This document shows, in pieces, positions 2,980 to 19,382 of a DNA stretch of 64,000 nucleotides. Source of the DNA: Candidatus Omnitrophota bacterium (lineage in GTDB: Bacteria > Omnitrophota > Gorgyraeia > Gygaellales > Gygaellaceae); the NCBI GenBank assembly GCA_018400015.1, contig JAGYNB010000001.1, forward strand, positions 6,815 through 70,814, read 5' to 3'. How positions within the stretch are numbered: position 1 is the stretch's first letter; every line of letters begins with the position of its first letter. Under the pieces are notes generated by a model that searched no databases, was not told the origin of the DNA, and saw only the letters and a program-made list of their open reading frames with translations. Both the position numbers and the translations under genes were made by a program.

Positions 2980-3767
2980 GAGAAATTGCAATTTACGGTA
3001 AAGGCGGAATCGGCAAAAGTTTTATTGCCAGCCACATATCTTATTGTCTTGCCGAAAAAGGTTTTAATGTTTTGCAAATTGGTTGTGACCCAAAACAGGA
3101 TAGCTGTGCGTTATTGCTCGATCGCAAAAGGATTCTTTCGGTTTTGGATTGGTTGAAAGAACGCGATTTTAATAAAGAAGATATAAATACGGAAGAGTTT
3201 ATTTTTGCTGTCAGCAAAAATAAAATCACCAACGGCAAAGTTTATTGTATAGAATCCGGAGGTCCTGAACCAGGCGTGGGTTGTGCAGGTAAAGGTATCG
3301 CCGAGGCTGTAGAGCTTATTAAGCAAAGCGGCCTGCAGCAGAGAAAAAAAATAGATTTTACTATCTACGATGTTTTAGGCGACGTAGTCTGCGGTGGTTT
3401 TTCGCTGCCGATAAGAGAGGGCTTTGCCAAGGAGATTTATATTGTTACTAGTTCCGAGCCAGAGTCCATTTATGCCGCTGTTAATATTTCTAAAGCGATA
3501 ATTAAATTTTCTCAAAGATCCGGAGCGAAGCTTGCAGGGATAATCGGCAACTCTAGAAACGGCCGTACAAATGAAGACCGGCTTAATAATTTCGTGCACA
3601 TATTAGGCTCTAATTTATTGGGCATAGTACCTTTTGAGGATATTTATGAAACCGGGATCAGCAAGGATACAGCTGTTTATAGCAATATAAGAACATTAAC
3701 GGAAAAAATAATTGCGCAACCTAATTGTACAATCCCTAAAAATATTGACTCAGAACAAATTTATTAA
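2976..3767 (+). CDS. Nitrogenase iron-protein-like ATPase/reductase (NifH/BchL/CfbC family)
   Basis: P-loop YGKGGIGKS. Both cluster-Cys motifs are present: CIESGGPEPGVGCAGKGI and DVLGDVVCGGFSLPIREG. 263 aa. Confidence 0.85.
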   Translation: MREIAIYGKGGIGKSFIASHISYCLAEKGFNVLQIGCDPKQDSCALLLDRKRILSVLDWLKERDFNKEDINTEEFIFAVSKNKITNGKVYCIESGGPEPGVGCAGKGIAEAVELIKQSGLQQRKKIDFTIYDVLGDVVCGGFSLPIREGFAKEIYIVTSSEPESIYAAVNISKAIIKFSQRSGAKLAGIIGNSRNGRTNEDRLNNFVHILGSNLLGIVPFEDIYETGISKDTAVYSNIRTLTEKIIAQPNCTIPKNIDSEQIY

Positions 3768-3770
3768 ATT

Positions 3771-5009: not shown

Positions 5010-6518
5010 ATGAAAGATTTAAGAATAAAAAAAATATATAGGCCTACATTCGTAGAAGGGGTATTTTGGACGCTTGCCGGGATAAAAGATGCGGTTGTTG
5101 TGTTTCATTCTCCCGGAGGTTGTTATGTTTCTCAAATGCAGACTTTATTGAGCCTCGATGAACCTTACGCTGATTTTTACACAAGCAACCTTTCTATGCC
5201 CAGCTTAATTATTTCTGGAGAGGATAGATTAAAAAGCGTTCTTGAGAAAGCAAAAGTAAATTCGAGCGATTGTTTGTTCGTTATCGATTCAGTGCCCGCT
5301 AGCATGATCAAGGAGGATTTAGACGGGGTTGTCGAATGTTTTGGGTTTAAGAATGCCGTTGTATTGAATGTCGATTCGGATAAAACCTTGAATGAAGGCA
5401 GAGATTATGCTTTGCTTAGACTTCTGCCCATGATGCAAAAGGGTTTAGAAAAAAAAGACAAAACTGTTAATATTATCGGCCCCACATGCTGTATGTATAA
5501 TTGGCGTTCAGATGTAGCTGAAATAAAGCGCGTTCTTAATGATATCGGGGTCAGCGTAAATACAGTTTTGTGCGCAGGCTGTACGCTCGAACAGATAAAA
5601 AAAGCGCCCCAGGCCCGTCTTAATCTTTGTGTATACCCGCATGATTGCGGATTGAGTCTTGCAAAGAAGATGGAGAGCAGTTTTAATATTCCGTACTTTA
5701 AAGATGTTGTTCCTATTGGTTTTGAGCAAACCGCAAACTGGCTGGAGCAGGTGGCCCAATTTTTTTCTTTGGATCCCAATGATTATTTGAAAAAACAGAT
5801 GAAAGAAGCAATGAGGTTCATGGATTCTAATTTTATTTTTTCTGTTAGTCATGATTCAAAAGCAGCATTAAGCGTGCAAAATCATAATACTTACGCTTTA
5901 GGGATAAGCCGGTTTTTGCAAAATGAATTAGGCACGGAGGTTTCCGCAGTAATAACTACCGATAAGAATATTCATAGCAAGTTAAGAAATGATGTTGGGC
6001 GCGTATTATTTTCTCCCGATATCAATCAGATAAGAAGTTTATTTATAGAAGTCTGTCCTACAGTCGTATTAGGCAGTTTTTACGAATTTGCCATCACTAA
6101 AGAAGTTGGGATAAAGAATTTTCTTTATTGCGATATACCTATGCCGAAAAATATCATTACACAAAGTTCTCCCTATATGGGGTTTAGGGGAGCGGTAAAT
6201 TTAATCCAACAGATAGCCACTCAGACGATTTCCAGCCTGTTTATAGATGCCAAAAGCGATACGGATGTTGAGCTTGGCAAGTCTGTTGTGAAATGGGAAC
6301 CTTTTGCTATTTCTGCGTTGGGCGAGATTGCAGAAATGATCCCTTATTTTGTAAGGACCGTGGCAATTAAAAAAATAAAACTGGAAGCAGAACAGTTGGC
6401 AAAAAAGCTGGCAACTCCAGTAGATACAGATATTTTAAGGCGCTCTCTAGAAAAAAACAGCCATTTTAGAAACAATCAAAAAGTCGATATGATATTTAAA
6501 AAGCAGAACCAGGCATGA
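5010..6518 (+). CDS. Nitrogenase component-1-like subunit (NifK/NifN/BchB-like)
   Basis: 502 aa. HSPGGC motif and the overall NifK/BchB-like pattern. Its start abuts the upstream stop, and its stop overlaps the next gene. Confidence 0.65.
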   Translation: MKDLRIKKIYRPTFVEGVFWTLAGIKDAVVVFHSPGGCYVSQMQTLLSLDEPYADFYTSNLSMPSLIISGEDRLKSVLEKAKVNSSDCLFVIDSVPASMIKEDLDGVVECFGFKNAVVLNVDSDKTLNEGRDYALLRLLPMMQKGLEKKDKTVNIIGPTCCMYNWRSDVAEIKRVLNDIGVSVNTVLCAGCTLEQIKKAPQARLNLCVYPHDCGLSLAKKMESSFNIPYFKDVVPIGFEQTANWLEQVAQFFSLDPNDYLKKQMKEAMRFMDSNFIFSVSHDSKAALSVQNHNTYALGISRFLQNELGTEVSAVITTDKNIHSKLRNDVGRVLFSPDINQIRSLFIEVCPTVVLGSFYEFAITKEVGIKNFLYCDIPMPKNIITQSSPYMGFRGAVNLIQQIATQTISSLFIDAKSDTDVELGKSVVKWEPFAISALGEIAEMIPYFVRTVAIKKIKLEAEQLAKKLATPVDTDILRRSLEKNSHFRNNQKVDMIFKKQNQA

Positions 6519-7627
6519 AACAAAATTTTTTAAATAGGGTTCACTTTAAGGTTATTCTGTTTATGGTAAAAAGAGCCATAGGGATAAAAAAGGGCCCAGT
6601 TAAAGTTGGTTTACAGATAACAAAAAGGTGTAATCTTAATTGTGTCCAATGTTCTGTAAAAGATACGGATGATTCTTTTGATGAACTTGACATCCAAGAA
6701 ATCGAAAAAGTTTTATTGAGTCTTAATAAGCTTGGTTGCGGGTTTTTGGTTTTGACTGGAGGAGAGCCTTTGTTAAGAGGCGATATTTGTCAGATAGTCG
6801 AGCTAACTTCCAAGTTTGGTTATACGACCGCACTGGCTACCAACGGGACAATTTTAACAAAAGAAATTGCCGAAAAGCTTAAGTTTGCCGGATTAAGCCT
6901 TTTTCACCTTTCATTAGACGCAGCCACTGCTGATAAACACGATGCCTTTCGCGGCGAAGGATCATTTAAAAAAACGCTTCAAGGTATTAGAATTGCAGTT
7001 GCAACAGGGTTGCCCGTGTGTGTCACAACTACAATAACAAGACAGAACAAAAACGAATTAGAGGAAATAGTAAAGCTTTTAGAAAAAGAAAAGGTACAGC
7101 AATGGTCGCCGATTTTTCTTGTTCCCTGCGGCCAGGCTGAAAAGATATATCACTCGCAAGCGGTAAAAGAAACAAATGAAATCCTGGCCTTATTTGATAA
7201 GTTGTATATAATAGAAAATAAGTTTAATAAAAGAATCAAAATATATATACACGATCCGCACACATATTTTGCTTATCTTTTGTTTAATAAAAAAGCAAGC
7301 TTTATGAGAAGAGTATTTTTTCATATAAGAAAAGGCTGCGGTATCTTAAACAGGTTTACGCTTTATATAAATAGCGACGGCACAATTAAGCCTTGCGCGT
7401 ATTATCCCGAGAGTCTCAAAGAGGTTAATGTAAAAACACACGATTTAAAAGATGTGTTTATAACAAATGGCGAGTTGGCAATGTTAAGAAATAAGCGTGC
7501 CTTAAAAGGTCAATGCAGGGAGTGTAGGTTTCTTTTTTGTTGCGGTGGGTGCCGAGCGAAAGCGCTTATTATAGGCGGAGACCATTTCGTCGAGGAAAAA
7601 AGCTGCCCCTTTTTTTTAAAAAGATGA
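6515..7627 (+). CDS. Radical SAM enzyme with SPASM domain (paralog 2)
   Basis: CNLNCVQCSVK motif. C-terminal ...CRECRFLFCCGGCRAKALIIGGDHFVEEKSCPFF. Confidence 0.85.
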   Translation: MKQNFLNRVHFKVILFMVKRAIGIKKGPVKVGLQITKRCNLNCVQCSVKDTDDSFDELDIQEIEKVLLSLNKLGCGFLVLTGGEPLLRGDICQIVELTSKFGYTTALATNGTILTKEIAEKLKFAGLSLFHLSLDAATADKHDAFRGEGSFKKTLQGIRIAVATGLPVCVTTTITRQNKNELEEIVKLLEKEKVQQWSPIFLVPCGQAEKIYHSQAVKETNEILALFDKLYIIENKFNKRIKIYIHDPHTYFAYLLFNKKASFMRRVFFHIRKGCGILNRFTLYINSDGTIKPCAYYPESLKEVNVKTHDLKDVFITNGELAMLRNKRALKGQCRECRFLFCCGGCRAKALIIGGDHFVEEKSCPFFLKR

Positions 7628-7893
7628 AAGAACAGAAAAAACTATTTTTTCAAAAAATTGCCACCTTGATTTTAATTTTTACTAGTTATGCTTTTAATTA
7701 TTATTGGGTTTTTAACAATCTTTATTGGGTGGGCATTTTGTTTGTTTTGATAGGTTTGTATTTATTTTTTAAGCTTGTCAAAGCAAAAATCATGGCAGAG
7801 ATAGTTTTTTGGTCTTTTTGTCTTGCCACAGTTACGATATTTATCATAAAGGCGATTTATTTTTGGTTTGGAATACACATAAGAACATGTTAA
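7624..7893 (+). CDS. Small hydrophobic membrane protein (2-3 predicted TM helices)
   Basis: Internal ATG of the 7537 ORF, placed right at the rSAM stop. The product is almost entirely hydrophobic (ILIFTSYAFNYYWVF..., LFVLIGLYLFF...). Confidence 0.35.
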   Translation: MKEQKKLFFQKIATLILIFTSYAFNYYWVFNNLYWVGILFVLIGLYLFFKLVKAKIMAEIVFWSFCLATVTIFIIKAIYFWFGIHIRTC

Positions 7894-8132
7894 AAAAAAT
7901 TAAATCCGCATTGTTAAAGACAGGATTGGTTGTTGCTATTTTATTTTGGCATGACTTTTGTCATATTTGGGTTGGGAAAAGGCTTTATTTTATGATTCCC
8001 ATTGTTATAATCATTTCTTTTTATTCAATCATAAAAGCTTTTATGGAAAAGAATATTTACCGTTCGGGAGTTTGGCTGTGGGTATTTTTTTATGCTTCAG
8101 TTAATTTTATTGTTATGGCAATTTACCATTAG
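7887..8132 (+). CDS. Small hydrophobic membrane protein, paralog of the preceding one
   Basis: Similar hydrophobic pattern and similar C-terminus (..NFIVMAIYH versus ..IFIIKAIYFW). The start overlaps the previous ORF's end. Confidence 0.35.
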   Translation: MLKKIKSALLKTGLVVAILFWHDFCHIWVGKRLYFMIPIVIIISFYSIIKAFMEKNIYRSGVWLWVFFYASVNFIVMAIYH

Positions 8133-8135
8133 TTT

Positions 8136-8963
8136 ATGAAAATAGACGCGCTAGAGAAAACGCATTTTAATTATTTTCATTTCCATAAATGGAGCTTTGT
8201 TTTAAGGCAAAACAAGCATTTGTCTTTCTATAAACCATACTGGAAGAATATGGTTGTTAAAATGCACATAGCGCAGGAATTGTTTTTAAAGCACCTAGGT
8301 AGCTTAAAAAAAGAAATATCGATCGATAGTAAAGACACTGAAAAGTTAAATAACTTTTTTATATTCGACGCGGAGAAAATATTGGGTGATGCTAGATTAA
8401 CAGATACACAAAAGCAATGCCTTGATTACAGGATATCCGAACACAGAGAAATAGTCAAAACAGCGTATTTATTGCGCGAAATTTCCGGTCGTTTGGGGAT
8501 TAAGGCGTTGAAAGAAGCCGCCGGTTCTATAAAAAAAGATTTTGCATTGCGTCTTCAGAAAGTCACAGCAGAAAGCATTGATCGCAGAAAGAAAAAGAAA
8601 CTAAGTTTTCGTTATATGTTGGGGGATCACTTTATTACAATAGAAAAAACGCATTCTGCTTGCAGGCTTGTTTTTTTAAATTGCCCCATTTACGGAGTTT
8701 TCCATTATTTAGGATTTATGGCTGAAGGAGAGATTTTTTGTCAGCTGTGCGAAGCTCATGGAGAAATTATGACCAAAAGCAATATTCCAATAAGACATAA
8801 GTTTTCTTTATCGCACAGTCTATGTGCAGGAAGCAAAAGATGTGAATTCTCGATGAATGTTATTAACCCCGCCGTCAATTTATTATTAAAGTGCGTTCCT
8901 GATAAAACAATAAATTTTCTTTTGGGTTTGAGCGAGCCAAAACATATTAAGAATGAGTTTTAA
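8136..8963 (+). CDS. Hypothetical protein with a C-terminal Cys/His-rich region
   Basis: 275-aa ORF in operon context. The C-terminal region is CRLVFLNCPIYGV...CQLCEAHGE...CAGSKRCEF. I recognise no family with confidence. Confidence 0.45.
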   Translation: MKIDALEKTHFNYFHFHKWSFVLRQNKHLSFYKPYWKNMVVKMHIAQELFLKHLGSLKKEISIDSKDTEKLNNFFIFDAEKILGDARLTDTQKQCLDYRISEHREIVKTAYLLREISGRLGIKALKEAAGSIKKDFALRLQKVTAESIDRRKKKKLSFRYMLGDHFITIEKTHSACRLVFLNCPIYGVFHYLGFMAEGEIFCQLCEAHGEIMTKSNIPIRHKFSLSHSLCAGSKRCEFSMNVINPAVNLLLKCVPDKTINFLLGLSEPKHIKNEF

Positions 8964-10041
8964 ATTCCTTTTAGCGGTTATTGCCCACAGGTTTAGATTT
9001 AGCAAAAGTCCCATAGTTGCTTTCTTAGAGGTTACCCAAAAGTGCAATATGAATTGTATATATTGTTCAAGCGACATGGGTTTATCCTCCGGAGAAGAGC
9101 TGAGCTTGGAACAGATCAAGAAATTAATTCGGGATTTTAAGAAGCTGGGTGTTTTTGTTTTTAATATTATTGGCGGCGAGCCGTTGTTGCGCAAAGATTT
9201 AATTGATATTGTACGTTTTGGTGCAAAGCAGGGCCTGATGACCAATATTTTGACTAACGCAACATTGTTAGACCTTCAGACAGCCCAGAATATAAAAAAA
9301 AGCGGTTTGAGCTTGTTTTCCCTTTCTTTGGACGGTTCTAATGAGGCAATTAATTCGTTGACAAGAGGCAAAGGAAGTTTTGAGAGAATTTTAACCGGTA
9401 TCGCTAATGCTATTTCAACAGGTTTGCCGGTTATGGTTAAGATCACCCTGCAGAAACAAAACATCGATGATTTAGAAAATATTGTAAGGTTGTTAATTGA
9501 AAAAAGGGTGAGTTTGTGGACAGCTGATTTTGCCATTCCCTGCGGCAGGGCAAAGGAAATGAGCCCGCTTCAAGATTTTTCAGTACAAGAAAGAGGTAAA
9601 ATTATCGAAAAGATTTATGAGTTGGCGCAAAAGTTTAAAAAACAAATTAGTTTTTTTACAATGGATAAAATTTATTATAATGTTTATTCTTTGAAGCGAG
9701 AAAAGCCCAATGTTTTGCAGAAATTAATGCTTTATTCAAAAGGCGGCTGCGGGGTTTTGGACGGTAATAGCATATATATAAATTGTGATGGTTCTATCCG
9801 CCCGTGTCCATTCTTTCCTTTTGTGTTGCCAGAGGTAAATATAAAAACTCGTAGTGTAATAGATGTGTACCGGTATAATGAATATTTCGGAAAATTACGC
9901 GACAGAAAGAATTTAAAGGGCAAATGTTCAAGGTGTAAATTTAGCTTTATTTGCGGTGGGTGCCGGGCAAGAATATATGCTCAAACCGGAGACTTTTTTG
10001 CCGAAGACGCCTCTTGTGATTTGTTTGAAAGCGCTAGTTAG
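8953..10041 (+). CDS. Radical SAM enzyme with SPASM domain (paralog 3)
   Basis: CNMNCIYCSS motif. C-terminal ...CSRCKFSFICGGCRARIYAQTGDFFAEDASC. Confidence 0.85.
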   Translation: MSFKFLLAVIAHRFRFSKSPIVAFLEVTQKCNMNCIYCSSDMGLSSGEELSLEQIKKLIRDFKKLGVFVFNIIGGEPLLRKDLIDIVRFGAKQGLMTNILTNATLLDLQTAQNIKKSGLSLFSLSLDGSNEAINSLTRGKGSFERILTGIANAISTGLPVMVKITLQKQNIDDLENIVRLLIEKRVSLWTADFAIPCGRAKEMSPLQDFSVQERGKIIEKIYELAQKFKKQISFFTMDKIYYNVYSLKREKPNVLQKLMLYSKGGCGVLDGNSIYINCDGSIRPCPFFPFVLPEVNIKTRSVIDVYRYNEYFGKLRDRKNLKGKCSRCKFSFICGGCRARIYAQTGDFFAEDASCDLFESAS

Positions 10042-10088
10042 GAGGTTAGCTTGACAGCAGTTTATTTATATGCAAGAATACTATCATT

Positions 10089-11921
10089 ATGTGCGGAATA
10101 ATAGGTTATGTAGGTAAAAGGCAGGCTGCAGATGTTGTTCTAAGCGGGCTCAAGCTGCTTGAATACAGAGGTTATGATTCTTGCGGCATGGCCTCTATTG
10201 TGCCTAATAAGAATGCAATTTCAGTGCGGAAACTTCCTTTAAAGGTAGCGGAACTAGAGAAGCTTTTAAAGAAAAAACCGTTATTGGGGCAGATAGCCAT
10301 TGGCCATGTGCGTTGGGCTACGCATGGGGCGCCTAATCAAGTAAATGCCCATCCGCATTGCGATTTCAATGGTGAAATAAGCGTTGTACACAACGGTATT
10401 ATTGAAAACTATCAGCAGCTAAAGAAAGACTTGGTAAAACAAGGAGTTCGTTTCAAAAGTAGTACAGATACAGAAATTATCCCTTATTTGGTTGCAAAAT
10501 ATCATAAAGACAAAACCCTTTTGGATGCGGTTAAAGAAACGGTAGGTGTTTTAGAGGGGTCTTTTGCAATCTGCGTTATGTCGAATAAAGAGCCGGATAC
10601 AATAGTAGGAGCGAGAAAAAATTCACCTTTAGTTGTGGGCATTGGAAAAGAAGAGAATTTTCTTGCCTCCGACATACCAGCATTTTTAAAGTACACAAAA
10701 GATGTTTTGTATCTTAACGATGAAGAGTTGGTGGCGATAACAAAAGACAGTGTTTCGTTATATGATTTTTCCGGCAAAAAAATAGACAGAAAATCTTCTT
10801 TGGTAAAGTGGGATCACGAGCAGGCACAGAAAAAAGGTTTTAGCCACTTTATGCTAAAAGAAATAAATGAACAGCCAGACATATTAGAAAATATGTTGAT
10901 CCACCGTTTGAAGAATAATCAAGTAGGGTTTGAGGAAATGACCATAAAGGACGATTTCTTCCGCGAAGTGGAAAATATTACTATCGTTGCCTGCGGAACA
11001 GCTTTTCACGCCGGGTTAGTAGGTAAATACATAATCGAGTCCACCTGCGGCATAAATGTAAATGTAGCTTATTCCAGCGAGCTAAGATATTCGCGTTTTA
11101 TTCCAAAGAAAAATACCGTGCTTATTGCCATAAGCCAATCCGGAGAAACCGCGGATACGTTAGCAGCCGTAAAAGAAATCAGGAAAGAAGGGGTTAAGGT
11201 ATTGTCTATCTGCAATGTGTTGGGTAGTTCTTTAGCCAGAGATTCCGACGGTGTTATATACACACACGCAGGACCGGAAATAAGTGTTGCTTCTACTAAA
11301 GCATACACAGCCCAGATCGCCATACTTGTTTTATTTATGTTTTATTTATCGCAAATAAAGAACATAGGATTAAAGCCGAATAAAGAAACTTTGTTAAAAA
11401 AACTATTAGAGATTCCGCAATTACAAAGAGATATATTAAAGAATCAAAAGGGTATTCTTAGCTTGGCCAAAAGGCATTCGCATTTTGGTTCTTTTTTGTA
11501 TTTAGGGCGCAATGTTAATTATCCTTCTGCTTTAGAAGGGGCTTTGAAGCTGAAAGAAATTTCTTATATCCCGGCAGAGGGGTATGCCGCAGGAGAAATG
11601 AAGCATGGACCAATTGCTTTAATTGATGAATATAGGGCGGTTGTTTGTATCGCTACAAGATCTTTTGTGTATGACAAGATGATTTCTAACATTCAGGAAA
11701 TCAATGCCCGCAAAGCAAAGATTATAATGGTTGCCAACGAAACAAGCGAGACCCTAAAATCTTTTACCAAAGAAATCATTTGTGTTCCCGCAACAGAAGA
11801 AATATTTTCTCCGCTTCTTGTGGCGCTTCCTTTACAGATTTTAGCTTATGGAATCGCTGTTAAACGCGGATGCGATGTTGATCAGCCTAGGAATCTTGCC
11901 AAATCCGTTACCGTGGAATAA
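10089..11921 (+). CDS. glmS: Glutamine--fructose-6-phosphate aminotransferase (isomerising)
   Basis: MCGIIGY N-terminal nucleophile. Two SIS domains. Ends ...NLAKSVTVE. Confidence 0.95.
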   Translation: MCGIIGYVGKRQAADVVLSGLKLLEYRGYDSCGMASIVPNKNAISVRKLPLKVAELEKLLKKKPLLGQIAIGHVRWATHGAPNQVNAHPHCDFNGEISVVHNGIIENYQQLKKDLVKQGVRFKSSTDTEIIPYLVAKYHKDKTLLDAVKETVGVLEGSFAICVMSNKEPDTIVGARKNSPLVVGIGKEENFLASDIPAFLKYTKDVLYLNDEELVAITKDSVSLYDFSGKKIDRKSSLVKWDHEQAQKKGFSHFMLKEINEQPDILENMLIHRLKNNQVGFEEMTIKDDFFREVENITIVACGTAFHAGLVGKYIIESTCGINVNVAYSSELRYSRFIPKKNTVLIAISQSGETADTLAAVKEIRKEGVKVLSICNVLGSSLARDSDGVIYTHAGPEISVASTKAYTAQIAILVLFMFYLSQIKNIGLKPNKETLLKKLLEIPQLQRDILKNQKGILSLAKRHSHFGSFLYLGRNVNYPSALEGALKLKEISYIPAEGYAAGEMKHGPIALIDEYRAVVCIATRSFVYDKMISNIQEINARKAKIIMVANETSETLKSFTKEIICVPATEEIFSPLLVALPLQILAYGIAVKRGCDVDQPRNLAKSVTVE

Positions 11922-12589
11922 TGCTCTATATAATATCAAGCCCGATAGGTAACCTTAAGGATATAACTTATAGAGCCGTAGAATGTTTAAAATCGTGCGA
12001 TCTCATCGCGTGCGAGGATACACGTAAATCCAGAATTTTACTCAATGCTTATGGTATAGACAAACCAACAACAAGCTATTTTCAATATAACCGCTTTAAG
12101 AAAGAAGCAATGTTGTTGGAAATGCTTAAAAAGAACAAAAACGTAGCTTTACTCAGTGAAGCCGGAACTCCCGGTATAAGCGACCCGGGTTTACATTTAG
12201 TGAGTCTTGCCGTAAAAGAAGGCATGGCGGTTAGTGCTTTGCCCGGGCCATGCGCTTTTATTAATGCTGTTGTTTTGTCAGGTCTGCCAACCGATAAAAT
12301 ACTTTTTGCCGGTTTTTTGCCAAAAAAAGACGGTCCGCAACAAAAAAAACTTATAGAATTTGCTAATACTGGCCATACGGTCGTAATATACGAATCTTGT
12401 CATCGCGTTGTAAGGCTTTTGAATAATATTGAAAAGACACTAGGCAATATAGCTATTGTTTGCTGCAGGGAGATGACCAAGAAATTCGAAGAAGTTTTAA
12501 GAAAAGATGCCGCCGGTCTTGTTAAGCACTTTCAAAACACGAAACCTAAGGGTGAGTTTACCCTTGTGCTCAGATTATTCAACAAATAA
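11921..12589 (+). CDS. rsmI: 16S rRNA (cytidine1402-2'-O)-methyltransferase
   Basis: Tetrapyrrole-methylase-fold RsmI signature: LYIISSPIGNLKDITYRA...CEDTRKS. Confidence 0.9.
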   Translation: MLYIISSPIGNLKDITYRAVECLKSCDLIACEDTRKSRILLNAYGIDKPTTSYFQYNRFKKEAMLLEMLKKNKNVALLSEAGTPGISDPGLHLVSLAVKEGMAVSALPGPCAFINAVVLSGLPTDKILFAGFLPKKDGPQQKKLIEFANTGHTVVIYESCHRVVRLLNNIEKTLGNIAIVCCREMTKKFEEVLRKDAAGLVKHFQNTKPKGEFTLVLRLFNK

Positions 12590-12722: not shown

Positions 12723-15700
12723 ATGCGTAAATTTATCAAAAAGGCAATTGCTATTTTTGTATGCTTTGTGTTTGTCTTTGAGCAGGCCGGTTTTGCCCAA
12801 AGCTTAAGCCGGATTGATTTTACTACCCATATAAACACTTTAAACAATCAGTATAGTTATGAAAAGTTTCAACCTGCGCATTTAAGGATGCTTTCTTACG
12901 ATAGATATTCGCAGCAATTTAGTTTTTTGGTCGATAGAGGAGACTACAATAACATAGAAAAAGAATTTTTGAAGCAGGTAACAGATAAGTTGTTTAGGAT
13001 GTTTCTTATCGGTTTAACCCTGCCAGACGATTCATTCTGGGTCAATCTTAGGCCTGATTCTCCCGAAGATATAATTGATAGTAATCTTGCCAAGACAGAT
13101 ATGGGCAGAATTTTTCTTGAGGCAGACCTGCAGCTTAAAAAAGATACAGCACGCTTTACATCTCCAGCAACAAAAGAAGGCAACCTTTATTGGCAGAGGC
13201 TGCAAGAAAAAGCTAATGAGCTTTTTGGGGTTCCAAACGTAAATATTCCTACATTGGCTAGACCATGGATAGTGCCAGGAGAAATAATATTGCGCGAGAC
13301 CGCCAGCGACGTTTATATCTATAAGGCGACTATCAACGTGATGCTCGAAGAAGACTATATAAAAGATTATCCAAGGTTTAATTTTAAGGATAAGCGCATG
13401 AAGGAGTTAAATGAGCATGCCTCAAGGTTGATGCGCGAAATAATAATCCCTCGTCTGGTCAAGGAAGTTAACACAGCTAAAAGATACGCGAGGCTTCGGC
13501 AGGTGTTTTATTCTTTAGTTATGGCGAAATGGTTTAAAGAAAGATTTAAGAATTCATCAGGCCGTTATGTTAGGCTTATCAATCAAGGCAGGCTTGAAGG
13601 TTTATTGTCAAAAGAAAAATGGTCTGTTAAGCCGTATTTTGAAGCCTACCAGAAGTCATTTCAGGAGGGAGAATATGAAATAAAAGTTTTCGGCAAAGGC
13701 GGATCTAACAAGGTAAGAGTTTATTTTAGCGGCGGGGCTTTACCCATGCCTAATGTAATACCTGATCCAGGGGAAACTATTGTTGATTCCGCTACCGGAA
13801 CAACGATAACTTCTATTTCCGCGCAAGAACAAATAGTTTTAGAGCAGGCGCCCCGGATTATCAAACAGGATACAAACGTTTTGATTAGCGAAGGAGAAGA
13901 CGTTTCCATTAATCCCGATGCCGTAGATGAAGACAGAAGATATCATGCTGACGAGAGAGAAAAATATAACCGTATACTTAAGTGGACAGAGACGGCAGAT
14001 CTTTTAAAAAGTGTATGGATCAGAGCATTGTCAGCAATGAATCCGGAAAGAAAAGAAAATCTGTTTAATACCGAAATTGAGCTTTTGATTGATTATCTAC
14101 AGACGCAGAATCCTTTGGGGCAGATTTTAAATAAAGGGAACACCGGCGATAGAATCGTAGTTTTTCAGGTTCCTGGAATTGCCAGGGAAGGTTTTGGCAT
14201 AAAAGACTTAAATGATAAGTTAGGGTACGAGCTTAATACAAGGCTTATCGGTGTTAGAAGGCAGATGATTTCGGAGTTAATGAAAGAAAAAGGGCTTATT
14301 GAAAATGACGGGTTAATTTATAGTACGTACAAAGAAGATGTTTTTCTTGTATCAAGCGATATTCAAATATCGCCGCAGATGTTGCAGGAAATTCAGCATG
14401 AATTGATTGCAAGAATCGGGCAGATTTTAAGAGGCCAATTCGAGTTTAGCAATGCCTTGCGCGTTAATGGTGTTAAGATCCAGCAGTTCAATAATGAGCC
14501 TCTCTATGCTTTAGGTTTTGGCATAGCGCAAATTACCGGTTCTTTGCCGCATGAAAGGATTTTAGCTGACATAAATGCACACCAGGCAATCGTTATAGGA
14601 GAGAATAACGCTGGTTCCAATTACACATTTTCTGAAAAAGATTACAACAAGGTTATTTTCGAGATTGATAGACTTCGTGGTCAACTTAATGAAAATTCGT
14701 ATATTTTTGAAGCAAACGAAGCAGGAGAATTATTTTTGTCACAAGAAGTCGCTGTCGCCCTAAGGGATAATTTGGATTGGGATGGCTTATCAATGCAAGC
14801 GAGAGAACAATTTATAAACGAAGTTAATTTCAATAACGCCAGGCAGTATTTCAGGCTTATTAAAATACAGGATTATATTAAAAAATGGCAGATTGATTTT
14901 GAAAAAGCAAGGGGCCGCTCTCAGCAAATAACCGCTTTAACAGAAAAACTTAAACAGAAGATAGCTCAAAGAGAAGAAAAATATCTTGTACCTATAGATA
15001 ACGAATTGCTTGAATTGGTTGTCCAGGCAAGAGATTTTATTGAAACAGAAACAAAATTGCCGGAGTTTGATTCTGAATTCGCTTTTTACTCCCGCGGTCC
15101 CCCTATGGAGAAGCCGATTTTTGTAACTCTGGATATCAAGAAAATGGGCATTATGAATATAAACGCCAACGAAATAGAACTGCAAAGAGTTTCATCTGCT
15201 CTTCAGTCAGGAGAAGTAGCGTCTTTAGAGGATATTTGGCTTTCGGCCGCAGACAGTGTTACAGAAAATCTTATTGAAACAATGAGAATAGCCAAAGACG
15301 GCATTATCCGAGAATTGGGTATTTCGGAAGATGATTTAACTGTATTAATGGGAGGAGATGAATTTACGTTAGTTTTTGAAGATAATTTGTCTGACAGGTT
15401 AGAAGAAGTTTTATATAAGGTAAAGAACCAGATAAAAGATAAAACTGGGATTGAAGCGAGAATCTGCGCCTCTACTGCAGCTTTAGAATTCGAAAGCGAA
15501 TTTTTTAACCGCAAAGACAATAATTATGAACATTTGGCCTTTGCAAAAACCATTTTAAGTTTAGAGGATGGCATTGCACGGTTAAAAGCATTAGAAAAAC
15601 AAGGCATCCAAGATTTTATAATTATTCAAGATGAAAAAGGTAATTGGCCTGATGTAAAGTCAAGAGTTGAATCAGAAATCAAAAAAGATAAAACTATAAC

Positions 15701-18700
15701 TAGAAGAAGTTTTCTTAGAACACTCGGTTTAGGAACATTGGCTTTAGCAGGCGCAGCTTTTGTCCCTGAATCGGCGAAAGCCGGTATCAGGATGGTTTTA
15801 AGTGATGTGACAGAAGAAAAAGTTTCTGAGTATGAGATGTGGGCGAATCGTTTAGCCGAACTATCCGGGAATAAACAAGAATTTATAGCTGCCTGTAATC
15901 AGCTGCAGCGGCTCATCCATGAAGAAAAAAAACTACATCTTTATAAAGCATACGAAACTGTTATTCAAAGCTCTTTTAATAGATTCCCTCGCGATATTCA
16001 AAGAAGGATTGTTGCTGATACTATAGAATATGTTATTTTCCAGACGGTTAATTTAAAACTTAGCGAACAAGCCAATGCGATTGTTTTAAATTGGCTTTCC
16101 CGCGAAGAAAATCTTAAGTTTGACTCAAAAGACGATTATCAAGTTCAGGCAGATATTGCTTCGCATATAATTCTTTTTTCCTCTAAGTATACCGATACAT
16201 TAGGCAAGGTTTTTAATGGTTATGCAGATGGCGCAATAAAACTCATGAATAAATCAGTTTTCAGGTATTTTGATACGATTAGCAACCAAACTATACAAAA
16301 TAGGTTGATCGATTTTATATCAAATCTCCAGATCAGCGAAAGCAATTTGGATTTGATTAATGAGGTTTTCGCTTCTTTAGGGAGAAAAATCAATGTTATA
16401 CATGATGCAAATGAATATGGCGATTGGCAGGGAGAGATAGTAAAATTTTTAGCTTCTTTTGGAAACAAAGACAGAATATTGCATTTGCTTATTGCTTATG
16501 GAGGCTTTGAACTTTATACGGGAACATTCCAGACTGTCTACAAACTGGCAGAGAAAAGCATAGCGGCAACAGGAGGTATGATTAATTGGTTAAAAAGGGT
16601 CGATGCAGAAAATCTTACCCGTGAACAATTCTTATTAGCCATATCCAGCCGCAATAAGTTGATCGATTTGGTTAGGAATACCAATGCTGATCCGCAGGAA
16701 ATAACGGGCGTATTAATAAATGTATGCGATGTTGTTAAAGAGATAATTGTTAATAAGCACCAGGATAGAAGAAGCTTGGCCTACATATCCAATGCCATAG
16801 AGCAGATATTTCGGTTTGATAACGATCAGGTAAAAGAATATTTAAAAGATATTGTTCTCGCCTTGGCAAAAGAAAACAACCTAACCCTTGTAGTTTTTTC
16901 TTATGTGGTTATTGCTAAGTTTAATGATATTTTTGAAGAAGATATAAAAGAATTTGAAAATGTAGAAAAAAAATTTCTTAATTTAATTAACTATCTTAAT
17001 GCGCCACCAAAAACAGTTTTGATAAACAACCGTTTAGTTGTTTTGGTTGATTATGCAAGTTCAGCTGCAAGTTATTTGGAAGATTTGAAAACCCTTTTTT
17101 CCACTCGTTACAGGTCAAATTATGATATTACTTATCCCAATAAGACAGAGCGGGATGCCGGTATAAAATATAAAATTACCGGGCAGGTTGACGGTATTGA
17201 TATCGAGTTTCATCTTGCAGAAAATATCAAAGGAGAGGATTTTAGAAAAGCTCTCGAGTCCGGTAGGTATTCTATGTTTTGTACAAGACACCATTCTTTT
17301 GAAGGGGCAGAGTTCGCGGGGGTTGGTTCAGATAAGGTATTGCCACAGTTTATTGGTACAATCGGTACTGGCCAAGGAGGAGAAAATAATAGTATGGCAG
17401 TTGTTTTGGCTGAAGAGGTGGCTAAGGCTGTTTCCAGGGATAAACATAACAGTTGGCAAGATATCCGTATGGTGATCGAATCAGGATTAAATCCACAGAC
17501 AGGAAAATTCAATAACGCCGATAGAAGAATGGGTTTGGATAATTTTATTCTTCCAGATTTTCTTGCTAACGTTATGTCATATGTTTTAAATGCCTCTTGG
17601 GATGGATTGCCGGATGCCCAAGAAGTTCGGCCTGTTATTATATTTGACGGCGGATGCGGAGGCGTTAATAGGATTCCCGAATATATCCCCAAGTATAATA
17701 AGGCGTTAGGGAATACGGATTTCTCAAGATTGATTTCTTTGGGTGCGGCTGTTGGCGGGATACAAGGATTAATGAGCGGCAATTTACAGGTCAGCGAGGA
17801 TATTAAGATCGAAATTGATTCAACCGTGGGTTCTAATTACGGATATGGAGAAAGAGTTCCAGAAGAAGAAGTTTTTGAGATTATCAAAAGGGAACGCGAT
17901 GTACAAGAGTTTATGCTTAAAAACCATCCTGAAGTGATACAACAGACGATAGACAATCTTGGTTTTGGTTTTAGTCTAGGCGATTTGGCAAGAATTGTAA
18001 TTTCCTATGAGGCATCCGGAAGCAATAAGCATGTTTTAAAGATCAAAGTTTTTACGGTAACAGGCGAAGAGAAGGCGTTTTTGATAGCTAAAAAAATTCC
18101 AGTAAAAGAAGGGTTTTTATTTGAAGAAGGCGAGGAGTCTGCCCAGCGCAATTTACAAAAAACAGGTTTAGTGCCTAGATTAGGCAAAGTTTATTATTTG
18201 AAAGAAACAGATTCAGGGTTTGAGTATCATGAAAACCCACCAGAAGAAGGCAATTTTGAAACAAGGGTCGCGGAAGAATTTATAAACGGTTTTACTTTAG
18301 CTGAATTAGAGTTTTTTATAGAGCAGTTTTTAGGTACAAAAAAAGCAAGAGAGACAATAAACGGTTTGTTGCAATCTGATCGCGGCAGCAGAGAATATAA
18401 CCTATATCTTGAAAAGTTGAAATCGTTAATTCAAAGTAAGGGGTTTTCAAAGGTTCAGACAGCCAGGCTTATTGAGCTTGCTCAGACCTTGGTGGATTTT
18501 GACAACGAATATAAAATATTGTCCGATGCTGCTGGTCAGTTGTTGCCCGTTAGCTTTATTACTCAGGCTACAAATACTATATTTGATATATTCGCAGCTT
18601 TAAATGAGAACAGCTATTCATTAGAGGCAATATGGTCGCACGATGTTCATTGGAGCAATATAATGTTTGAAAAATCCACAGGCAGGTTAGTCGTAGTTGA

Positions 18701-19382
18701 TTTAGGTAAAACAACAACCGATTCTTTAAATAAATTCTTGCTAGAAACACTTTATTATTATGGTATCAGCGTAGAGCACGGCAAGGGAATTTTAGAAAAT
18801 CTTTTTGTTAATCTAAATGCCGAAAACAGATCGATAGTTTTGCAAACCCTAAGGCCGCTTATAGAGGAAAAAGCAGTTAAGAATTTTCTTTTACAGGCAT
18901 TAAGAGACAGGATCGACACAACGCGCTTAAATAAATTAGATGCTCCGGCAAAAAGGATATCAAAAGCAATTAAGGAATTTTTAGACAGTCAAAAAAGTAA
19001 TTTTGATTCCGGCGGCATAGATTTTACCAATATATCGCCATTGGCATTAGAAGGCAGATCTGTGGCGGAAGGTTTCAGGTTTGACAAACAGGACAGTTTT
19101 TTAAGGGATATGAACGCTTTAATCAATAAGCGTATTATTCCTTCACCAGAAGGCATAAAAGAATATGTTCAGCAAAATTCTGATAAAGAAAACCTGGAAG
19201 ACTTATTAGATGGTGTGTATAATTTGCTGGTTTCAGTATTAAGATTAGAGGAAGAAAAAGTTGTTTTAACAGATGACAAGACAAAAGAATTGCTCAAGGT
19301 TATAGGCTCGACGCACGACTTAACAGATCTACATAACCACTTGCAGGATATAGAGTTTAGCGCCAAAGGGCCAGAGATTTAA
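12723..19382 (+). CDS. Giant secreted or surface protein of unknown function (2219 aa)
   Basis: 6.66-kb uninterrupted ORF in an AT-rich genome. N-terminal signal peptide MRKFIKKAIAIFVCFVFVFEQAGFAQS. RBS AAGGA upstream. I recognise no catalytic domain. Confidence 0.8.
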   Translation: MRKFIKKAIAIFVCFVFVFEQAGFAQSLSRIDFTTHINTLNNQYSYEKFQPAHLRMLSYDRYSQQFSFLVDRGDYNNIEKEFLKQVTDKLFRMFLIGLTLPDDSFWVNLRPDSPEDIIDSNLAKTDMGRIFLEADLQLKKDTARFTSPATKEGNLYWQRLQEKANELFGVPNVNIPTLARPWIVPGEIILRETASDVYIYKATINVMLEEDYIKDYPRFNFKDKRMKELNEHASRLMREIIIPRLVKEVNTAKRYARLRQVFYSLVMAKWFKERFKNSSGRYVRLINQGRLEGLLSKEKWSVKPYFEAYQKSFQEGEYEIKVFGKGGSNKVRVYFSGGALPMPNVIPDPGETIVDSATGTTITSISAQEQIVLEQAPRIIKQDTNVLISEGEDVSINPDAVDEDRRYHADEREKYNRILKWTETADLLKSVWIRALSAMNPERKENLFNTEIELLIDYLQTQNPLGQILNKGNTGDRIVVFQVPGIAREGFGIKDLNDKLGYELNTRLIGVRRQMISELMKEKGLIENDGLIYSTYKEDVFLVSSDIQISPQMLQEIQHELIARIGQILRGQFEFSNALRVNGVKIQQFNNEPLYALGFGIAQITGSLPHERILADINAHQAIVIGENNAGSNYTFSEKDYNKVIFEIDRLRGQLNENSYIFEANEAGELFLSQEVAVALRDNLDWDGLSMQAREQFINEVNFNNARQYFRLIKIQDYIKKWQIDFEKARGRSQQITALTEKLKQKIAQREEKYLVPIDNELLELVVQARDFIETETKLPEFDSEFAFYSRGPPMEKPIFVTLDIKKMGIMNINANEIELQRVSSALQSGEVASLEDIWLSAADSVTENLIETMRIAKDGIIRELGISEDDLTVLMGGDEFTLVFEDNLSDRLEEVLYKVKNQIKDKTGIEARICASTAALEFESEFFNRKDNNYEHLAFAKTILSLEDGIARLKALEKQGIQDFIIIQDEKGNWPDVKSRVESEIKKDKTITRRSFLRTLGLGTLALAGAAFVPESAKAGIRMVLSDVTEEKVSEYEMWANRLAELSGNKQEFIAACNQLQRLIHEEKKLHLYKAYETVIQSSFNRFPRDIQRRIVADTIEYVIFQTVNLKLSEQANAIVLNWLSREENLKFDSKDDYQVQADIASHIILFSSKYTDTLGKVFNGYADGAIKLMNKSVFRYFDTISNQTIQNRLIDFISNLQISESNLDLINEVFASLGRKINVIHDANEYGDWQGEIVKFLASFGNKDRILHLLIAYGGFELYTGTFQTVYKLAEKSIAATGGMINWLKRVDAENLTREQFLLAISSRNKLIDLVRNTNADPQEITGVLINVCDVVKEIIVNKHQDRRSLAYISNAIEQIFRFDNDQVKEYLKDIVLALAKENNLTLVVFSYVVIAKFNDIFEEDIKEFENVEKKFLNLINYLNAPPKTVLINNRLVVLVDYASSAASYLEDLKTLFSTRYRSNYDITYPNKTERDAGIKYKITGQVDGIDIEFHLAENIKGEDFRKALESGRYSMFCTRHHSFEGAEFAGVGSDKVLPQFIGTIGTGQGGENNSMAVVLAEEVAKAVSRDKHNSWQDIRMVIESGLNPQTGKFNNADRRMGLDNFILPDFLANVMSYVLNASWDGLPDAQEVRPVIIFDGGCGGVNRIPEYIPKYNKALGNTDFSRLISLGAAVGGIQGLMSGNLQVSEDIKIEIDSTVGSNYGYGERVPEEEVFEIIKRERDVQEFMLKNHPEVIQQTIDNLGFGFSLGDLARIVISYEASGSNKHVLKIKVFTVTGEEKAFLIAKKIPVKEGFLFEEGEESAQRNLQKTGLVPRLGKVYYLKETDSGFEYHENPPEEGNFETRVAEEFINGFTLAELEFFIEQFLGTKKARETINGLLQSDRGSREYNLYLEKLKSLIQSKGFSKVQTARLIELAQTLVDFDNEYKILSDAAGQLLPVSFITQATNTIFDIFAALNENSYSLEAIWSHDVHWSNIMFEKSTGRLVVVDLGKTTTDSLNKFLLETLYYYGISVEHGKGILENLFVNLNAENRSIVLQTLRPLIEEKAVKNFLLQALRDRIDTTRLNKLDAPAKRISKAIKEFLDSQKSNFDSGGIDFTNISPLALEGRSVAEGFRFDKQDSFLRDMNALINKRIIPSPEGIKEYVQQNSDKENLEDLLDGVYNLLVSVLRLEEEKVVLTDDKTKELLKVIGSTHDLTDLHNHLQDIEFSAKGPEI

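Follow-up and report, generated by a model that had tools for sequence, protein, structure and literature searches.

The gene and its conserved ends

The 64-kb window (the whole stretch of DNA analyzed) contains, at nucleotides 12723..19382 of the + strand, an open reading frame (ORF) that starts with ATG, encodes 2219 aa, and has a single stop codon, at its end; all the features described below lie on the same strand. At the local composition, the chance of 2219 stop-free codons was calculated to be ~5e-78, which upheld the claim of an earlier sequence-only reading that so long an ORF is improbable by chance; it is a single real gene. No Pfam family was retrieved above threshold anywhere in the protein and no PDB sequence matched it at E ≤ 1, in keeping with the earlier failure to recognize any domain. 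Its division into two halves of ~1000 aa proved to be too simple, as at least seven modules follow one another along the chain. The giant modular protein encoded by this single genuine gene belongs to the N-module/C-module family of Omnitrophota and has a positional orthologue (P0002) with identical flanking gene order.

The family comprises at least 582 large proteins of 1.2–3.8 kaa, which come from Omnitrophota wherever the sources name the organism. Its layout consists of a Sec-type N-terminal signal, an N-module of ~310 aa, and a C-module of ~125 aa, all conserved across hundreds of proteins, and a string of cargo between the modules that varies. The N-terminal signal (aa 1–26, nt 12723..12800; MRKFIKKAIAIFVCFVFVFEQAGFAQ) is the hydropathy maximum of the protein and was supported by the consensus of 114 family sequences. 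As judged by hydropathy and charge alone, it has the basic n-region, the 12-residue strongly hydrophobic core, and the GFA↓Q-type site of the Sec-type signal proposed earlier, and it ends with FEQAGFAQ, where the near-invariant motif of the family reads FEQSGFAQ. The N-module (aa 27–340, nt 12801..13742) is conserved across the family, being covered by all of the at least 119 other matches listed, mostly with ~50% identity, and 77 columns were invariant in a 17-sequence alignment. Its core was modelled by AF2 with a pLDDT of ~85–95, and nothing significant was found when the PDB was compared with this module by sequence and by fold.

The C-module (aa 2097–2219, nt 19011..19379) begins with GGIDF and was aligned in most collected proteins: aa 2090–2219 were aligned over at least half of their length by 106 of the 133 other collected proteins, and aa 2070–2219 by 104 proteins, most of these alignments stopping 0–9 residues from the C-terminus. 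The motif GG[IV]D[FLM] occurred 128 times against an expectation of 1.5. Because SGGIDF both ends the N-module and opens the C-module, the two may be halves of one unit, which would favor the same compartment for both and counts against a functional internal leader.

Cargo regions and the lineage-specific cassette

Cargo region 1 (aa 400–760, nt 13920..15002) is common to a few family members (P0002, 70%; P0003, 32%; four others, ~24%) and had no Pfam match. Cargo region 2 (aa 760–977, nt 15000..15653) contains the literal sequence GGDEF (aa 877–881, nt 15351–15365), for which no PF00990 match was obtained and the profile comparison with the PDB was not significant. A kinase-like region (aa 1690–2090, nt 17790..18992), common to P0002, P0004, and P0005, carries HDVHWSN (aa 1973–1979) and VVVDLGK (aa 1990–1996), which were paired with the catalytic loop and DxG of Ser/Thr kinases in a profile alignment, with an E of only 0.57.

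The segment between these regions (aa 978–1687, nt 15654..17783) is a lineage-specific cassette missing from P0002, which is a single ORF on 11 contigs, the two locations given being from JGI and Logan. Similarity to the orthologue fades past GNWP (aa 973–977), and the remaining alignment, if any, stops at the leader within the cassette; the alignment was limited to aa 1–1026 (by BLAST extension) and 1688–2219. P0002 has neither leader nor cassette, and the central segment in their place is unrelated to that of the 2219-aa protein (z = −0.4). An orthologue lacking the RR motif with conserved flanks had been named as evidence against a Tat signal: in P0002 the RR is absent and the upstream flank is kept, but the downstream flank is replaced as well.

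The cassette (~700 aa) consists, in order, of the leader, a helical spacer, an ARM/HEAT-like repeat, and an alpha/beta domain. An exhaustive HMMER search retrieved 14 relatives. The cassette lies mostly inside large proteins (for example P0123, itself an N-module/C-module protein), and it also exists as a free-standing clade of ~830–870 aa (L004, L010–L013), in which the leader lies 34–40 residues from the start. The spacer (aa 1021–1183, nt 15783..16271; pLDDT 50–60) is poorly conserved and alignable only to P0121, at 27%. The repeat (aa 1184–1424, nt 16272..16994; AF2 pLDDT ~85–96) had armadillo repeats, importins, and PP2A subunits as its best Foldseek matches in the PDB (E of 2e-3 to 1e-1, probability up to 1.0).

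The alpha/beta domain (aa 1434–1664, nt 17022..17714) has conserved loops after three strands, namely the invariant TRHHS (aa 1521–1525, nt 17283–17297), the conserved GTGQGGENN (aa 1548–1556, nt 17364–17390), and GGCGGVNR (aa 1643–1650, nt 17649–17672). The last is among the best conserved motifs of the domain (its G, G, C, and R are kept by at least 90% of 15 sequences and by every member of a 14-sequence domain alignment), and it lies inside the Cys/Gly-rich stretch IIFDGGCGGVNRIPEY, which had been suspected to mark an enzymatic or toxin-like module and does mark a conserved, probably catalytic one. Neither a Pfam match in any of its 14 members nor a meaningful PDB match by sequence was obtained for the domain, which is of unclassified fold and a candidate His/Cys enzyme. 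Its comparison with caspase-3 by hhalign gave a probability of 0.13%.

An assembly artefact behind the 2219-aa protein is unlikely. This exact protein occurs on one contig only, as would be expected if a frameshift or misassembly near nt 15690 had joined two genes; this origin, or an internal start giving an N-terminal Tat substrate, is extremely improbable. Both cassette junctions are in frame and their flanks match the syntenic single-ORF orthologue, the GC content is even along the whole gene, and the cassette also lies inside other N-module/C-module proteins. The nearest canonical in-frame start before the leader is the TTG of codon 938 (nt 15534), which lies 56 codons upstream of the first RR arginine, and most leader-bearing homologues have no Met near the leader. 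The former statement that no in-frame ATG, GTG, or TTG precedes the RR therefore fails for this TTG and holds for the interval after it. A Shine-Dalgarno sequence is absent before most genes of the window, so its absence at the leader is uninformative.

The Tat-type leader and its conservation

The leader (aa 992–1020, nt 15696..15782) is composed of ITRRSFLR, the h-region TLGLGTLALAGAAFV, and the c-region PESAKA, and it includes the proposed mid-protein Tat signal TRRSFLRTLGLGTLALAGAAFVPESAKA (aa 993–1020, nt 15699–15782). The description of the latter as a textbook signal was substantiated by the NCBIfam profile TIGR01409 (TAT_signal_seq), which matched aa 992–1020 over all 29 positions with 18.1 bits (curated cutoff, 16.7); the internal motifs of homologues also scored above this cutoff. 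Like canonical N-terminal Tat signals (TIGR01409/PF10518), the leader has an S/T-R-R-x-F-L-K-like motif, an A/G-rich h-region, and an AxA c-region; unlike them, it lies deep inside a 2219-aa chain and recurs internally in many proteins. Its AF2 pLDDT is below 50, indicating that it is not packed into a domain.

Among the 12 cassette relatives with enough upstream sequence, 10 carry [GI][IL][ST]RRxFLK and an h-region 110–335 aa before the domain, with 22–39% identity, and an automated shuffle test found the leader in nine of the 12 against 0.28 expected. It is internal in most cassette relatives and N-terminal in the free-standing clade. In the wider family, the strict pattern [STG]RRxF[LIM] followed by an h-region was found in 12 of 120 proteins (0.115 expected), the motif stands before at least seven different downstream contexts, and RRxFL is retained between homologues that are 38–60% identical downstream. 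The leaders are positively charged on the N-side (mean +2.2) and neutral on the C-side, and in several of them a helix-breaking Pro is present, as is an AxA-type site 22–29 residues past the RR. Their h-regions are rich in A, G, T, and V, with a hydropathy of 1.89 compared with a mean of 3.09 for the family N-terminal signals, whose cores are rich in L, F, I, and C (p = 1.5e-12); the same kind of contrast in composition and hydropathy is known between Tat and Sec h-regions (PMC7317946). Judged from this conservation, the leader is a selected, integral element of the cassette, neither an accident nor a decayed fossil.

The sequence-only reading had envisaged a gene fusion with a fossil Tat signal. 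The fusion stands in outline, given the free-standing clade and the replacement of an unrelated P0002 segment by the cassette, whereas the fossil does not, as internal copies keep the RR, h-region, and AxA-type c-region. A cassette derived from a free-standing Tat-exported ancestor could still have carried along a leader that fell idle after fusion, the giant protein being exported by Sec or staying put. We consider this somewhat unlikely. It would suit the near-terminal leader of the free-standing clade, the leaderless syntenic orthologue, the single Sec-type signal upstream with nothing else TM-like, and the 87 of 120 family members with no internal hydrophobic segment at all, in which the whole chain probably shares one compartment. 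However, an idle 28-residue element should decay, and this one persists next to an unalignable spacer; the internal leaders look more canonical than the free-standing ones, and the motif is ~100-fold enriched in the family across unrelated downstream contexts.

Export topology and the role of the leader

Tentatively, the internal leader is most likely a functional Tat-type element, by analogy with FecR and actinobacterial Rieske proteins. Its RR motif would be recognized by TatC, its h-region would enter the membrane as a hairpin, and what is folded behind it (the ARM repeat, the alpha/beta domain, and the rest) would be carried across the cytoplasmic membrane or anchored there; a signal peptidase cut behind AKA, between A1020 and G1021, may then split the protein. 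The available part of an Omnitrophota KO table lists TatA, TatC, and LepB orthologues for both genomes that it includes, and no Tat genes were found within the window. Several findings count against a functional leader: the h-region of the free-standing clade is weak and contains Lys, P0002 manages without a leader, and cytoplasmic-looking domains lie behind leaders (a kinase-like region in the 2219-aa protein, GGDEF in P0027 and P0072).

Upstream of the leader there is a single hydrophobic segment, the N-terminal signal; this holds here and for 12 of 20 leader-bearing proteins. If this signal drives Sec export, the RR would end up across the membrane from where TatC could bind it. The N-domain of FecR is small (~85 aa), cytoplasmic, and without a signal peptide, whereas the part ahead of the leader here is ~970 aa long and has a Sec-type signal. 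The resemblance to E. coli FecR lies in a soluble domain upstream of an internal Tat signal, an N-terminal extension being compatible with Tat recognition there, as cited in PMC11533796.

Internal Tat signals have been established experimentally for Rieske/Sco2149, and the dual Sec/Tat proteins (Sco2149, Sco3746, and polyferredoxins; Keller 2012, PMC3471235; Tooke 2017, PMC5449189) likewise have an internal RR behind a Sec-dependent N-terminal hydrophobic segment, a Tat-dependent stretch of low hydrophobicity, and basic residues near its C-end (here K1018 and R1023). In those proteins, an even number of Sec-inserted TM helices precedes the RR, which is therefore cytoplasmic, whereas here there is one, ~970 soluble residues away; a single upstream Sec signal breaks their topology rule. 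Their passenger domains bind cofactors, and none such was recognizable in the 2219-aa protein; the segment that depends on Tat stays in them as a TM helix, whereas the Omnitrophota leaders have cleavage-type c-regions. The internal Tat-type leader represents an arrangement that known export rules leave unexplained.

A single upstream signal would suit a topology in which Sec exported the first ~970 aa until the leader core halted translocation and spanned the membrane N-out/C-in, so that the last ~1200 aa, with the kinase-like region and others, stayed in the cytoplasm. The core is the sole other notable hydrophobic stretch of the protein, the nucleotide-using domains behind leaders would remain cytoplasmic, and an extra TM in P0029 (aa ~1055) would put its peptidoglycan-type M23 domain in the periplasm. 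Nevertheless, the internal TM or stop-transfer segment suggested earlier fits poorly and is improbable: the uncharged core is short, with 16 residues in this protein and 11–16 in approximately half of the leaders, its moderate hydrophobicity (1.48 over 19 residues here; mean of 1.89 over 12) is weak for a stable stop-transfer helix, the positive-inside rule would call for the reverse charge bias in this orientation, and a membrane anchor needs neither the conserved RRxFLK nor the Pro and AxA.

One chain with two signals of contrasting type could also be a polyprotein or effector, which is quite improbable. It might be cleaved in the producer, perhaps with its own His/Cys alpha/beta domain doing the cutting, so that the N-terminal part becomes a Sec substrate and the C-terminal part a Tat substrate, or a secreted multi-effector might use the leader to direct the cassette to a target cell's Tat pathway or membrane. 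Ser/Ala/Pro/Glu-rich linkers precede the leaders in many family members, the invariant His/Cys-bearing domain travels with the leader, and cytoplasm-type enzyme cargo lies behind a secretion signal, between conserved ends as in MARTX toxins. Against this, no protease fold was found in the domain, which lacked Pfam and PDB matches and scored only 0.13% against caspase-3, no conserved cleavage motif emerged ahead of the RR, and delivery into other cells would be, like this whole proposal, purely inferential. MARTX and polymorphic toxins have conserved ends around variable enzyme modules, which are swapped between close relatives. The likeness is one of layout, an analogy and not membership, as no homology was detected; unlike MARTX toxins, the 2219-aa protein has no glycine-rich repeats, recognizable CPD, or T1SS signal.

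In favor of the polyprotein or effector reading, Omnitrophota are proposed predators or parasites, and cleavage of their giant proteins has been suggested. Their giant ORFs (Seymour 2023, PMC10066038; West-Roberts 2023, bioRxiv 10.1101/2023.11.21.568195; and a 2026 study, bioRxiv 10.64898/2026.06.07.730766) are also long and poorly annotated, usually with an N-terminal signal or TM helix and mixed regulatory and metabolic Pfam modules. These studies deal with ORFs of more than ~20 kb or proteins of at least 10,000 aa, above the size range of the N-module/C-module family, and the passages searched contain no mention of this family or of internal Tat signals. The cleavage proposed for the giant proteins is post-translational, and the 2026 pipeline explicitly drops internal signal-peptide calls as chunking artefacts.

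The giant ORF and its protein family

The gene for the query, the 2219-aa protein, is a single ATG-started ORF of 2219 codons (12723-19382, forward strand). At the composition of the window, a frame without a stop over such a length has a chance of ~5e-78, in agreement with the sequence-only reading that a 6.66-kb ORF was improbable by chance, and the GC content was even along the ORF. All substantial ORFs of the window are on the forward strand, and the GC skew was positive over the whole 64 kb. Housekeeping genes adjoin the query gene on both sides; its upstream neighbors are a nitrogenase-like and radical-SAM cluster, then GlmS, and then a tetrapyrrole methylase, and its downstream neighbors are a PyrR-like phosphoribosyltransferase, PyrB, and PyrC. 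The best homologue of the query was P0002, annotated as Candidatus Gygaella obscura (Omnitrophota), which is encoded in exactly the same gene order by one 2083-aa ORF on 11 contigs (two places shown, with JGI and Logan as sources). Thus, a giant ORF at this position is no assembly accident. The particular sequence of the query was found on one contig only.

The tetrapyrrole-type gene cluster directly upstream (1945-12589, forward strand) comprises genes for an AhbD/NirJ-like radical SAM protein (1945-2979), a NifH/CfbC-like ATPase (2976-3767), a NifE/NifD-like protein (3771-5009), a BchB-like protein (5010-6518), two further radical SAM/SPASM proteins (6515-7627 and 8953-10041), a 275-aa protein with no family match (8136-8963), GlmS, and the tetrapyrrole methylase (11921-12589), all on the forward strand. 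As all the nitrogenase-like and AhbD-like matches were far under the equivalog cutoffs, the cluster may be an uncharacterized nitrogenase-like reductase system; it is syntenic in Ca. Gygaella obscura. The first listed ORF of the window (200-1702, forward strand) matched DNA gyrase subunit A over no more than its C-terminal part (profile ~308-798), and thus, the gyrase gene probably starts upstream of the listed GTG, possibly past the left edge of the window.

At the N-terminus of the query (aa 1-26), a basic n-region and a small-residue site accompany the stretch of highest hydrophobicity in the protein, as expected for the Sec-type signal that had been assigned to it. The protein had also been described as lacking a recognizable domain, and neither a Pfam scan of the whole query (E≤1) nor a PDB sequence search returned a match; Pfam gives no domain in its closest relatives either. 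At its ends, the query carries the three marks of a protein family: a signal ending in FEQSGFAQ (FEQAGFAQ in the query), an N-module of ~310 aa, and a C-module of ~125 aa opening with GGIDF. The family has at least 582 members, and the organism names given by the sources among the 120 members listed were all Omnitrophota or Omnitrophica. The 119 other listed matches have only aa 1-~340 (mostly ~50% identity) and ~2095-2219 (~30% identity) in common with the query. The cargo between the modules is swappable, and its Pfam domains include UbiB/ABC1 kinase, peptidase M48, GNAT, methyltransferases, HATPase, metallophosphoesterase, Fic, DnaJ, HEAT repeats, and glycolytic enzymes. In the passages searched of the literature on Omnitrophota giant ORFs, there was no mention of the mid-size family thus delimited or of internal Tat signals.

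The N-module contains 77 invariant columns in a 17-sequence alignment, and its core was modeled by AlphaFold2 with a pLDDT of about 85-95. Comparison with the PDB, by sequence and by fold, gave no significant relative of the N-module; the best Foldseek match, the pore-forming toxin NheA, was not significant (E = 0.057, TM about 0.1). The C-module opens with GGIDFRxLPI and in most of the 104 members aligned, it stops 0-9 residues short of the C-terminus. YFSGG forms the end of the N-module, and SGGIDF closes it in ten members. The end of the N-module and the opening of the C-module are at 13713-13736 and 19011-19025 in the window, and the motif was listed for P0041, P0048, P0053, P0054, P0076, P0079, P0093, P0096, and P0102. 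GG[IV]D[FLM] occurred 128 times in the 134 collected proteins, compared with 1.5 expected, and because the two modules share it, they may, judging from the sequences, be halves of one ancestral unit between which the cargo was inserted. Alternatively, the motif suggests a mark of a junction or processing site.

The N-terminal signal of the family is almost invariant (consensus MKRKLPKIISLLLCFLLIFEQSGFAQ). This signal (12723-12800 in the window; P0002-P0120) is conserved beyond the usual, with a cysteine in the hydrophobic core (LLCF) and FEQSGFAQ as the c-region. The core cysteine and the unusual conservation of FEQSGFAQ point to a putative dedicated sorting or processing system that would read the signal beyond a generic signal peptidase.

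A twin-arginine leader inside the query

A Tat-type signal, referred to as the leader, was found exactly where a Tat-like sequence had been noticed, at aa 993-1020 of the query (TRRSFLRTLGLGTLALAGAAFVPESAKA; nt 15699-15782). The NCBIfam profile TIGR01409 (TAT_signal_seq) matched aa 992-1020 over all 29 of its positions (1-29), and its score of 18.1 bits exceeded the curated cutoff of 16.7, which makes it more than a superficial resemblance. The sequence T-R-R-S-F-L-R (aa 993-999) corresponds to the twin-arginine consensus S/T-R-R-x-F-L-K. It is followed by an h-region of 16 uncharged residues (TLGLGTLALAGAAFVP) and then by ESAKA↓G, as in Tat signals, where ~12 or more moderately hydrophobic residues precede a polar c-region with an AxA site. 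The departure from a standard Tat signal is its placement, at residues 992-1020 of 2219 instead of the N-terminus.

The leader had a pLDDT below 50 in the AlphaFold2 model of aa 985-1700 and thus lies outside any folded core. Its hydropathy was in the Tat-like range and far under that of the Sec-type signals of the family, and the transmembrane segment suggested earlier fits it poorly. Basic residues stand near its C-side (K1018 and R1023), but only about four of ten cassette leaders have a basic c-region by eye. We regard a stop-transfer anchor as decidedly unlikely.

Among in-frame ATG, GTG, and TTG codons upstream of the RR, the closest is a TTG, codon 938, which precedes it by 56 codons. 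The claim that no in-frame start precedes the motif therefore held within this distance and failed at the TTG. An internal translation start before the leader was rejected, as none of the three codons is closer than 56 codons to the RR. A Shine-Dalgarno check was uninformative because 33 of the 51 gene starts in the window had no such sequence; the regions before the starts are A-rich. With the syntenic giant ORF of P0002 also considered, it is very improbable that the leader is an artefact or arises from an internal start.

The cassette and its relatives

P0002 was 67% identical to the query over the BLAST alignment of aa 1-1026 and 64% identical again from aa 1688, although clear similarity fades just past GNWP (aa 973-977) and the alignment is weak beyond. 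At the position aligned with the leader, P0002 has neither the RR motif nor the hydrophobic core. Its central segment was unrelated to that of the query (z = -0.4) and had no match among all the other collected proteins; divergence of the center was rejected on the z value in favor of replacement. With flanks so similar around an unrelated center, aa ~978-1687 of the query represent a lineage-specific replacement, referred to as the cassette. Of the proposed gene fusion with a fossil Tat signal, the fusion stands in outline, whereas the leader is retained in relatives and is no fossil.

Downstream of the leader, AlphaFold2 gave a confident helical repeat of the ARM/HEAT type (aa 1184-1424; model residues 200-440), the nearest PDB folds of which were armadillo repeats, importins, and PP2A subunits (E of 2e-3 to 1e-1), and an alpha/beta domain (aa 1434-1664; model residues 450-680). 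In the latter, the conserved loops TRHHS, GxGxxNN, and GGCGGxNR follow three strands, a pattern that suggests an active site. The domain has no relative in Pfam or by PDB sequence, and its identity as a clan CD (caspase-like) cysteine peptidase, a group with a caspase-hemoglobinase fold in which a His and then a Cys follow consecutive strands, was rejected for now. No cofactor-binding family was detected downstream of the leader in the query or in the relatives of the alpha/beta domain. Outside the cassette, the letters GGDEF occur at aa 877-881, within the upstream region of aa 760-977; a diguanylate cyclase (PF00990) was rejected, as there was no Pfam match at E≤1 and no PDB profile match. 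The downstream region (aa 1690-2090) contains a D-x4-N motif (HDVHWSN) and a DLG motif; both could be aligned with the catalytic loop of a Ser/Thr kinase, at E = 0.57 only and with no Pfam match, and the likeness to protein kinases stays at motif level.

Relatives of the cassette were collected by an exhaustive HMMER search with aa 985-1700 and by pattern scans of contigs. The search retrieved 14 representative proteins of 392-5169 aa, all homologous to the query only within aa ~1185-1665. Among the 12 with enough upstream sequence, 10 carry the leader ([GI][IL][ST]RRxFLK together with a hydrophobic stretch) at a distance of 110-335 residues ahead of the domain, and these 10 are only 22-39% identical to the query across the cassette alignment. 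An automated criterion found the leader in 9 of the 12, compared with 0.28 expected from shuffles. The hosts are diverse: P0123 is a member of the N-module/C-module family; P0121, P0124, and P0130 have a distant N-module; further hosts, of ~1,100 aa, each have a hydrophobic signal of their own at the N-terminus. The leader moves from protein to protein as part of the cassette.

Scans of genome and metagenome contigs also revealed a clade of free-standing cassettes (L004 and L010-L013), complete ORFs of ~830-870 aa on contigs low in GC (31-33%). An n-region of 30-40 residues, rich in Lys and Glu, precedes their leader (motif G(M/I)TRREFLK), which is located 34-40 residues after the start; its h-region includes a Lys and is weaker than that of the internal copies. 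The binning of one contig of this clade as Saccharibacteria is doubtful, given its length of 2.7 kb. Locus L007 (CAYIMR010000002.1), labelled Planctomycetales, encodes a protein of more than 2,400 aa with the cassette and an internal leader, so the cassette may extend beyond Omnitrophota. The RR of L007 is at about aa 1758 of a partial ORF, which looks TPR-like at its start by eye and continues past the 5' end of the retrieved sequence. In another cassette locus, L005, a weak TatC match beside the cassette gene was rejected, as its sequence is that of a probable ABC-transporter permease.

Internal leaders across the family and their possible function

Independently of the query's cassette, canonical internal leaders were present at positions 388-2754 in 11 of the 120 listed family members; a strict pattern counted 12 of 120, compared with 0.115 expected. 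RRxFL is kept with a drifting h-region in P0027, P0072, and P0080 (48-60% identical downstream) and in P0011 and P0015 (38%). The leaders occur in at least seven unrelated downstream contexts, in many members behind a Ser/Ala/Pro/Glu-rich linker, and their motifs match TIGR01409 and PF10518. The leader cores are rich in Ala, Gly, Thr, and Val (mean hydropathy 1.89), whereas the N-terminal signals of the same family are rich in Leu, Phe, Ile, and Cys (3.09; p = 1.5e-12, Mann-Whitney). A mild A/G/T/V-rich core as opposed to a strongly hydrophobic L/F/I-rich one is the classical distinction of Tat from Sec/SRP signals (PMC7317946). The leaders are positive on the N-side (mean charge +2.2) and neutral on the C-side, and the uncharged core measures 11-16 residues in about half of 20 leaders (16 in the query). 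Several have a helix-breaking Pro and then a small-x-small site 22-29 residues past the RR (e.g., FVPESAKA↓G, FKPIEALA↓R, IKPFEALA↓R, IPLPSRA↓N, and PSLTNA↓Q). The whole Tat-type signal, with a c-region of the cleavage type, is conserved hundreds to thousands of residues into large proteins. The element, a Tat signal peptide, is of a known kind, and its setting is new: the element is conserved, cassette-borne, and deep in giant proteins that also bear a Sec-type signal.

To our knowledge, only Tat targeting followed by signal-peptidase cleavage needs RRxFLK, a short moderate core, and Pro...AxA together. Their retention in internal copies therefore favors targeting and cleavage. We tentatively read the leader as a functional Tat-type element that would work from an internal position by some way round the topology problem, and we give this reading somewhat less than an even chance. 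If the N-terminal Sec signal works as it looks, the RR would be outside the cell membrane and beyond the reach of TatC. An inherited signal now without function is less probable, though worth weighing.

By definition, Tat signals are N-terminal, and they are predicted as such; the few internal ones known either obey a strict rule of topology or come after a small cytoplasmic domain. For actinobacterial Rieske proteins and related families, insertion of an even number of helices is by Sec, and that of the last helix is by Tat (PMC3471235, PMC5449189). The Tat segment of the Rieske Sco2149 type is low in hydrophobicity; so is the leader of the query, whereas a basic c-region is not general among the cassette leaders. 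The Rieske type also has a globular passenger domain that binds a cofactor; the alpha/beta domain downstream of the leader is unclassified. The query departs from the rule of an even number of Sec helices before the RR, as one hydrophobic segment (aa 8-26) precedes it; among 20 leader-bearing proteins, this number was one in 12, zero in six, and two in two. The FecR type has a soluble cytoplasmic N-domain without an export signal, whereas the query has a Sec-type signal at aa 1-26. TatA and TatC were found neither in the 64-kb window nor in the other loci examined; KOs for TatA, TatC, and LepB are present in two Omnitrophota genomes in the available part of a supplementary table (Seymour 2023, PMC10066038).

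Two further possibilities, together a long shot, are a two-signal polyprotein, in which the leader would be used after a cut, and an injected effector, in which it would steer the cassette to the Tat machinery of the prey. In the polyprotein case, one gene would yield two products, an N-terminal one exported by Sec and a C-terminal one exported by Tat once folded, the cut possibly being made by the His/Cys domain that always travels with the leader. Either would functionally resemble the internal signal sequences of flavivirus polyproteins and, if true, would be a targeting mode not described in bacteria.

If the leader is functional, either the Tat pathway accepts more than is known or giant proteins are processed into separately targeted products, which bears on whether Omnitrophota giant proteins act whole or in pieces. 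Pipelines suppressing internal signal-peptide calls would miss such leaders; one giant-protein pipeline removes them by design (bioRxiv 10.64898/2026.06.07.730766). Periplasm-type and cytoplasm-type domains showed a mixed distribution around the leaders, which does not settle the topology. In P0029 (2551 aa), an internal leader is located at aa 441, followed by an LMW phosphotyrosine phosphatase domain (894-1005), a strong TM-like segment (about aa 1055), a peptidase M23 domain (1926-2016), and a phosphoribosyltransferase domain (2255-2344), and thus, periplasm-type and cytoplasm-type modules stand on one chain.
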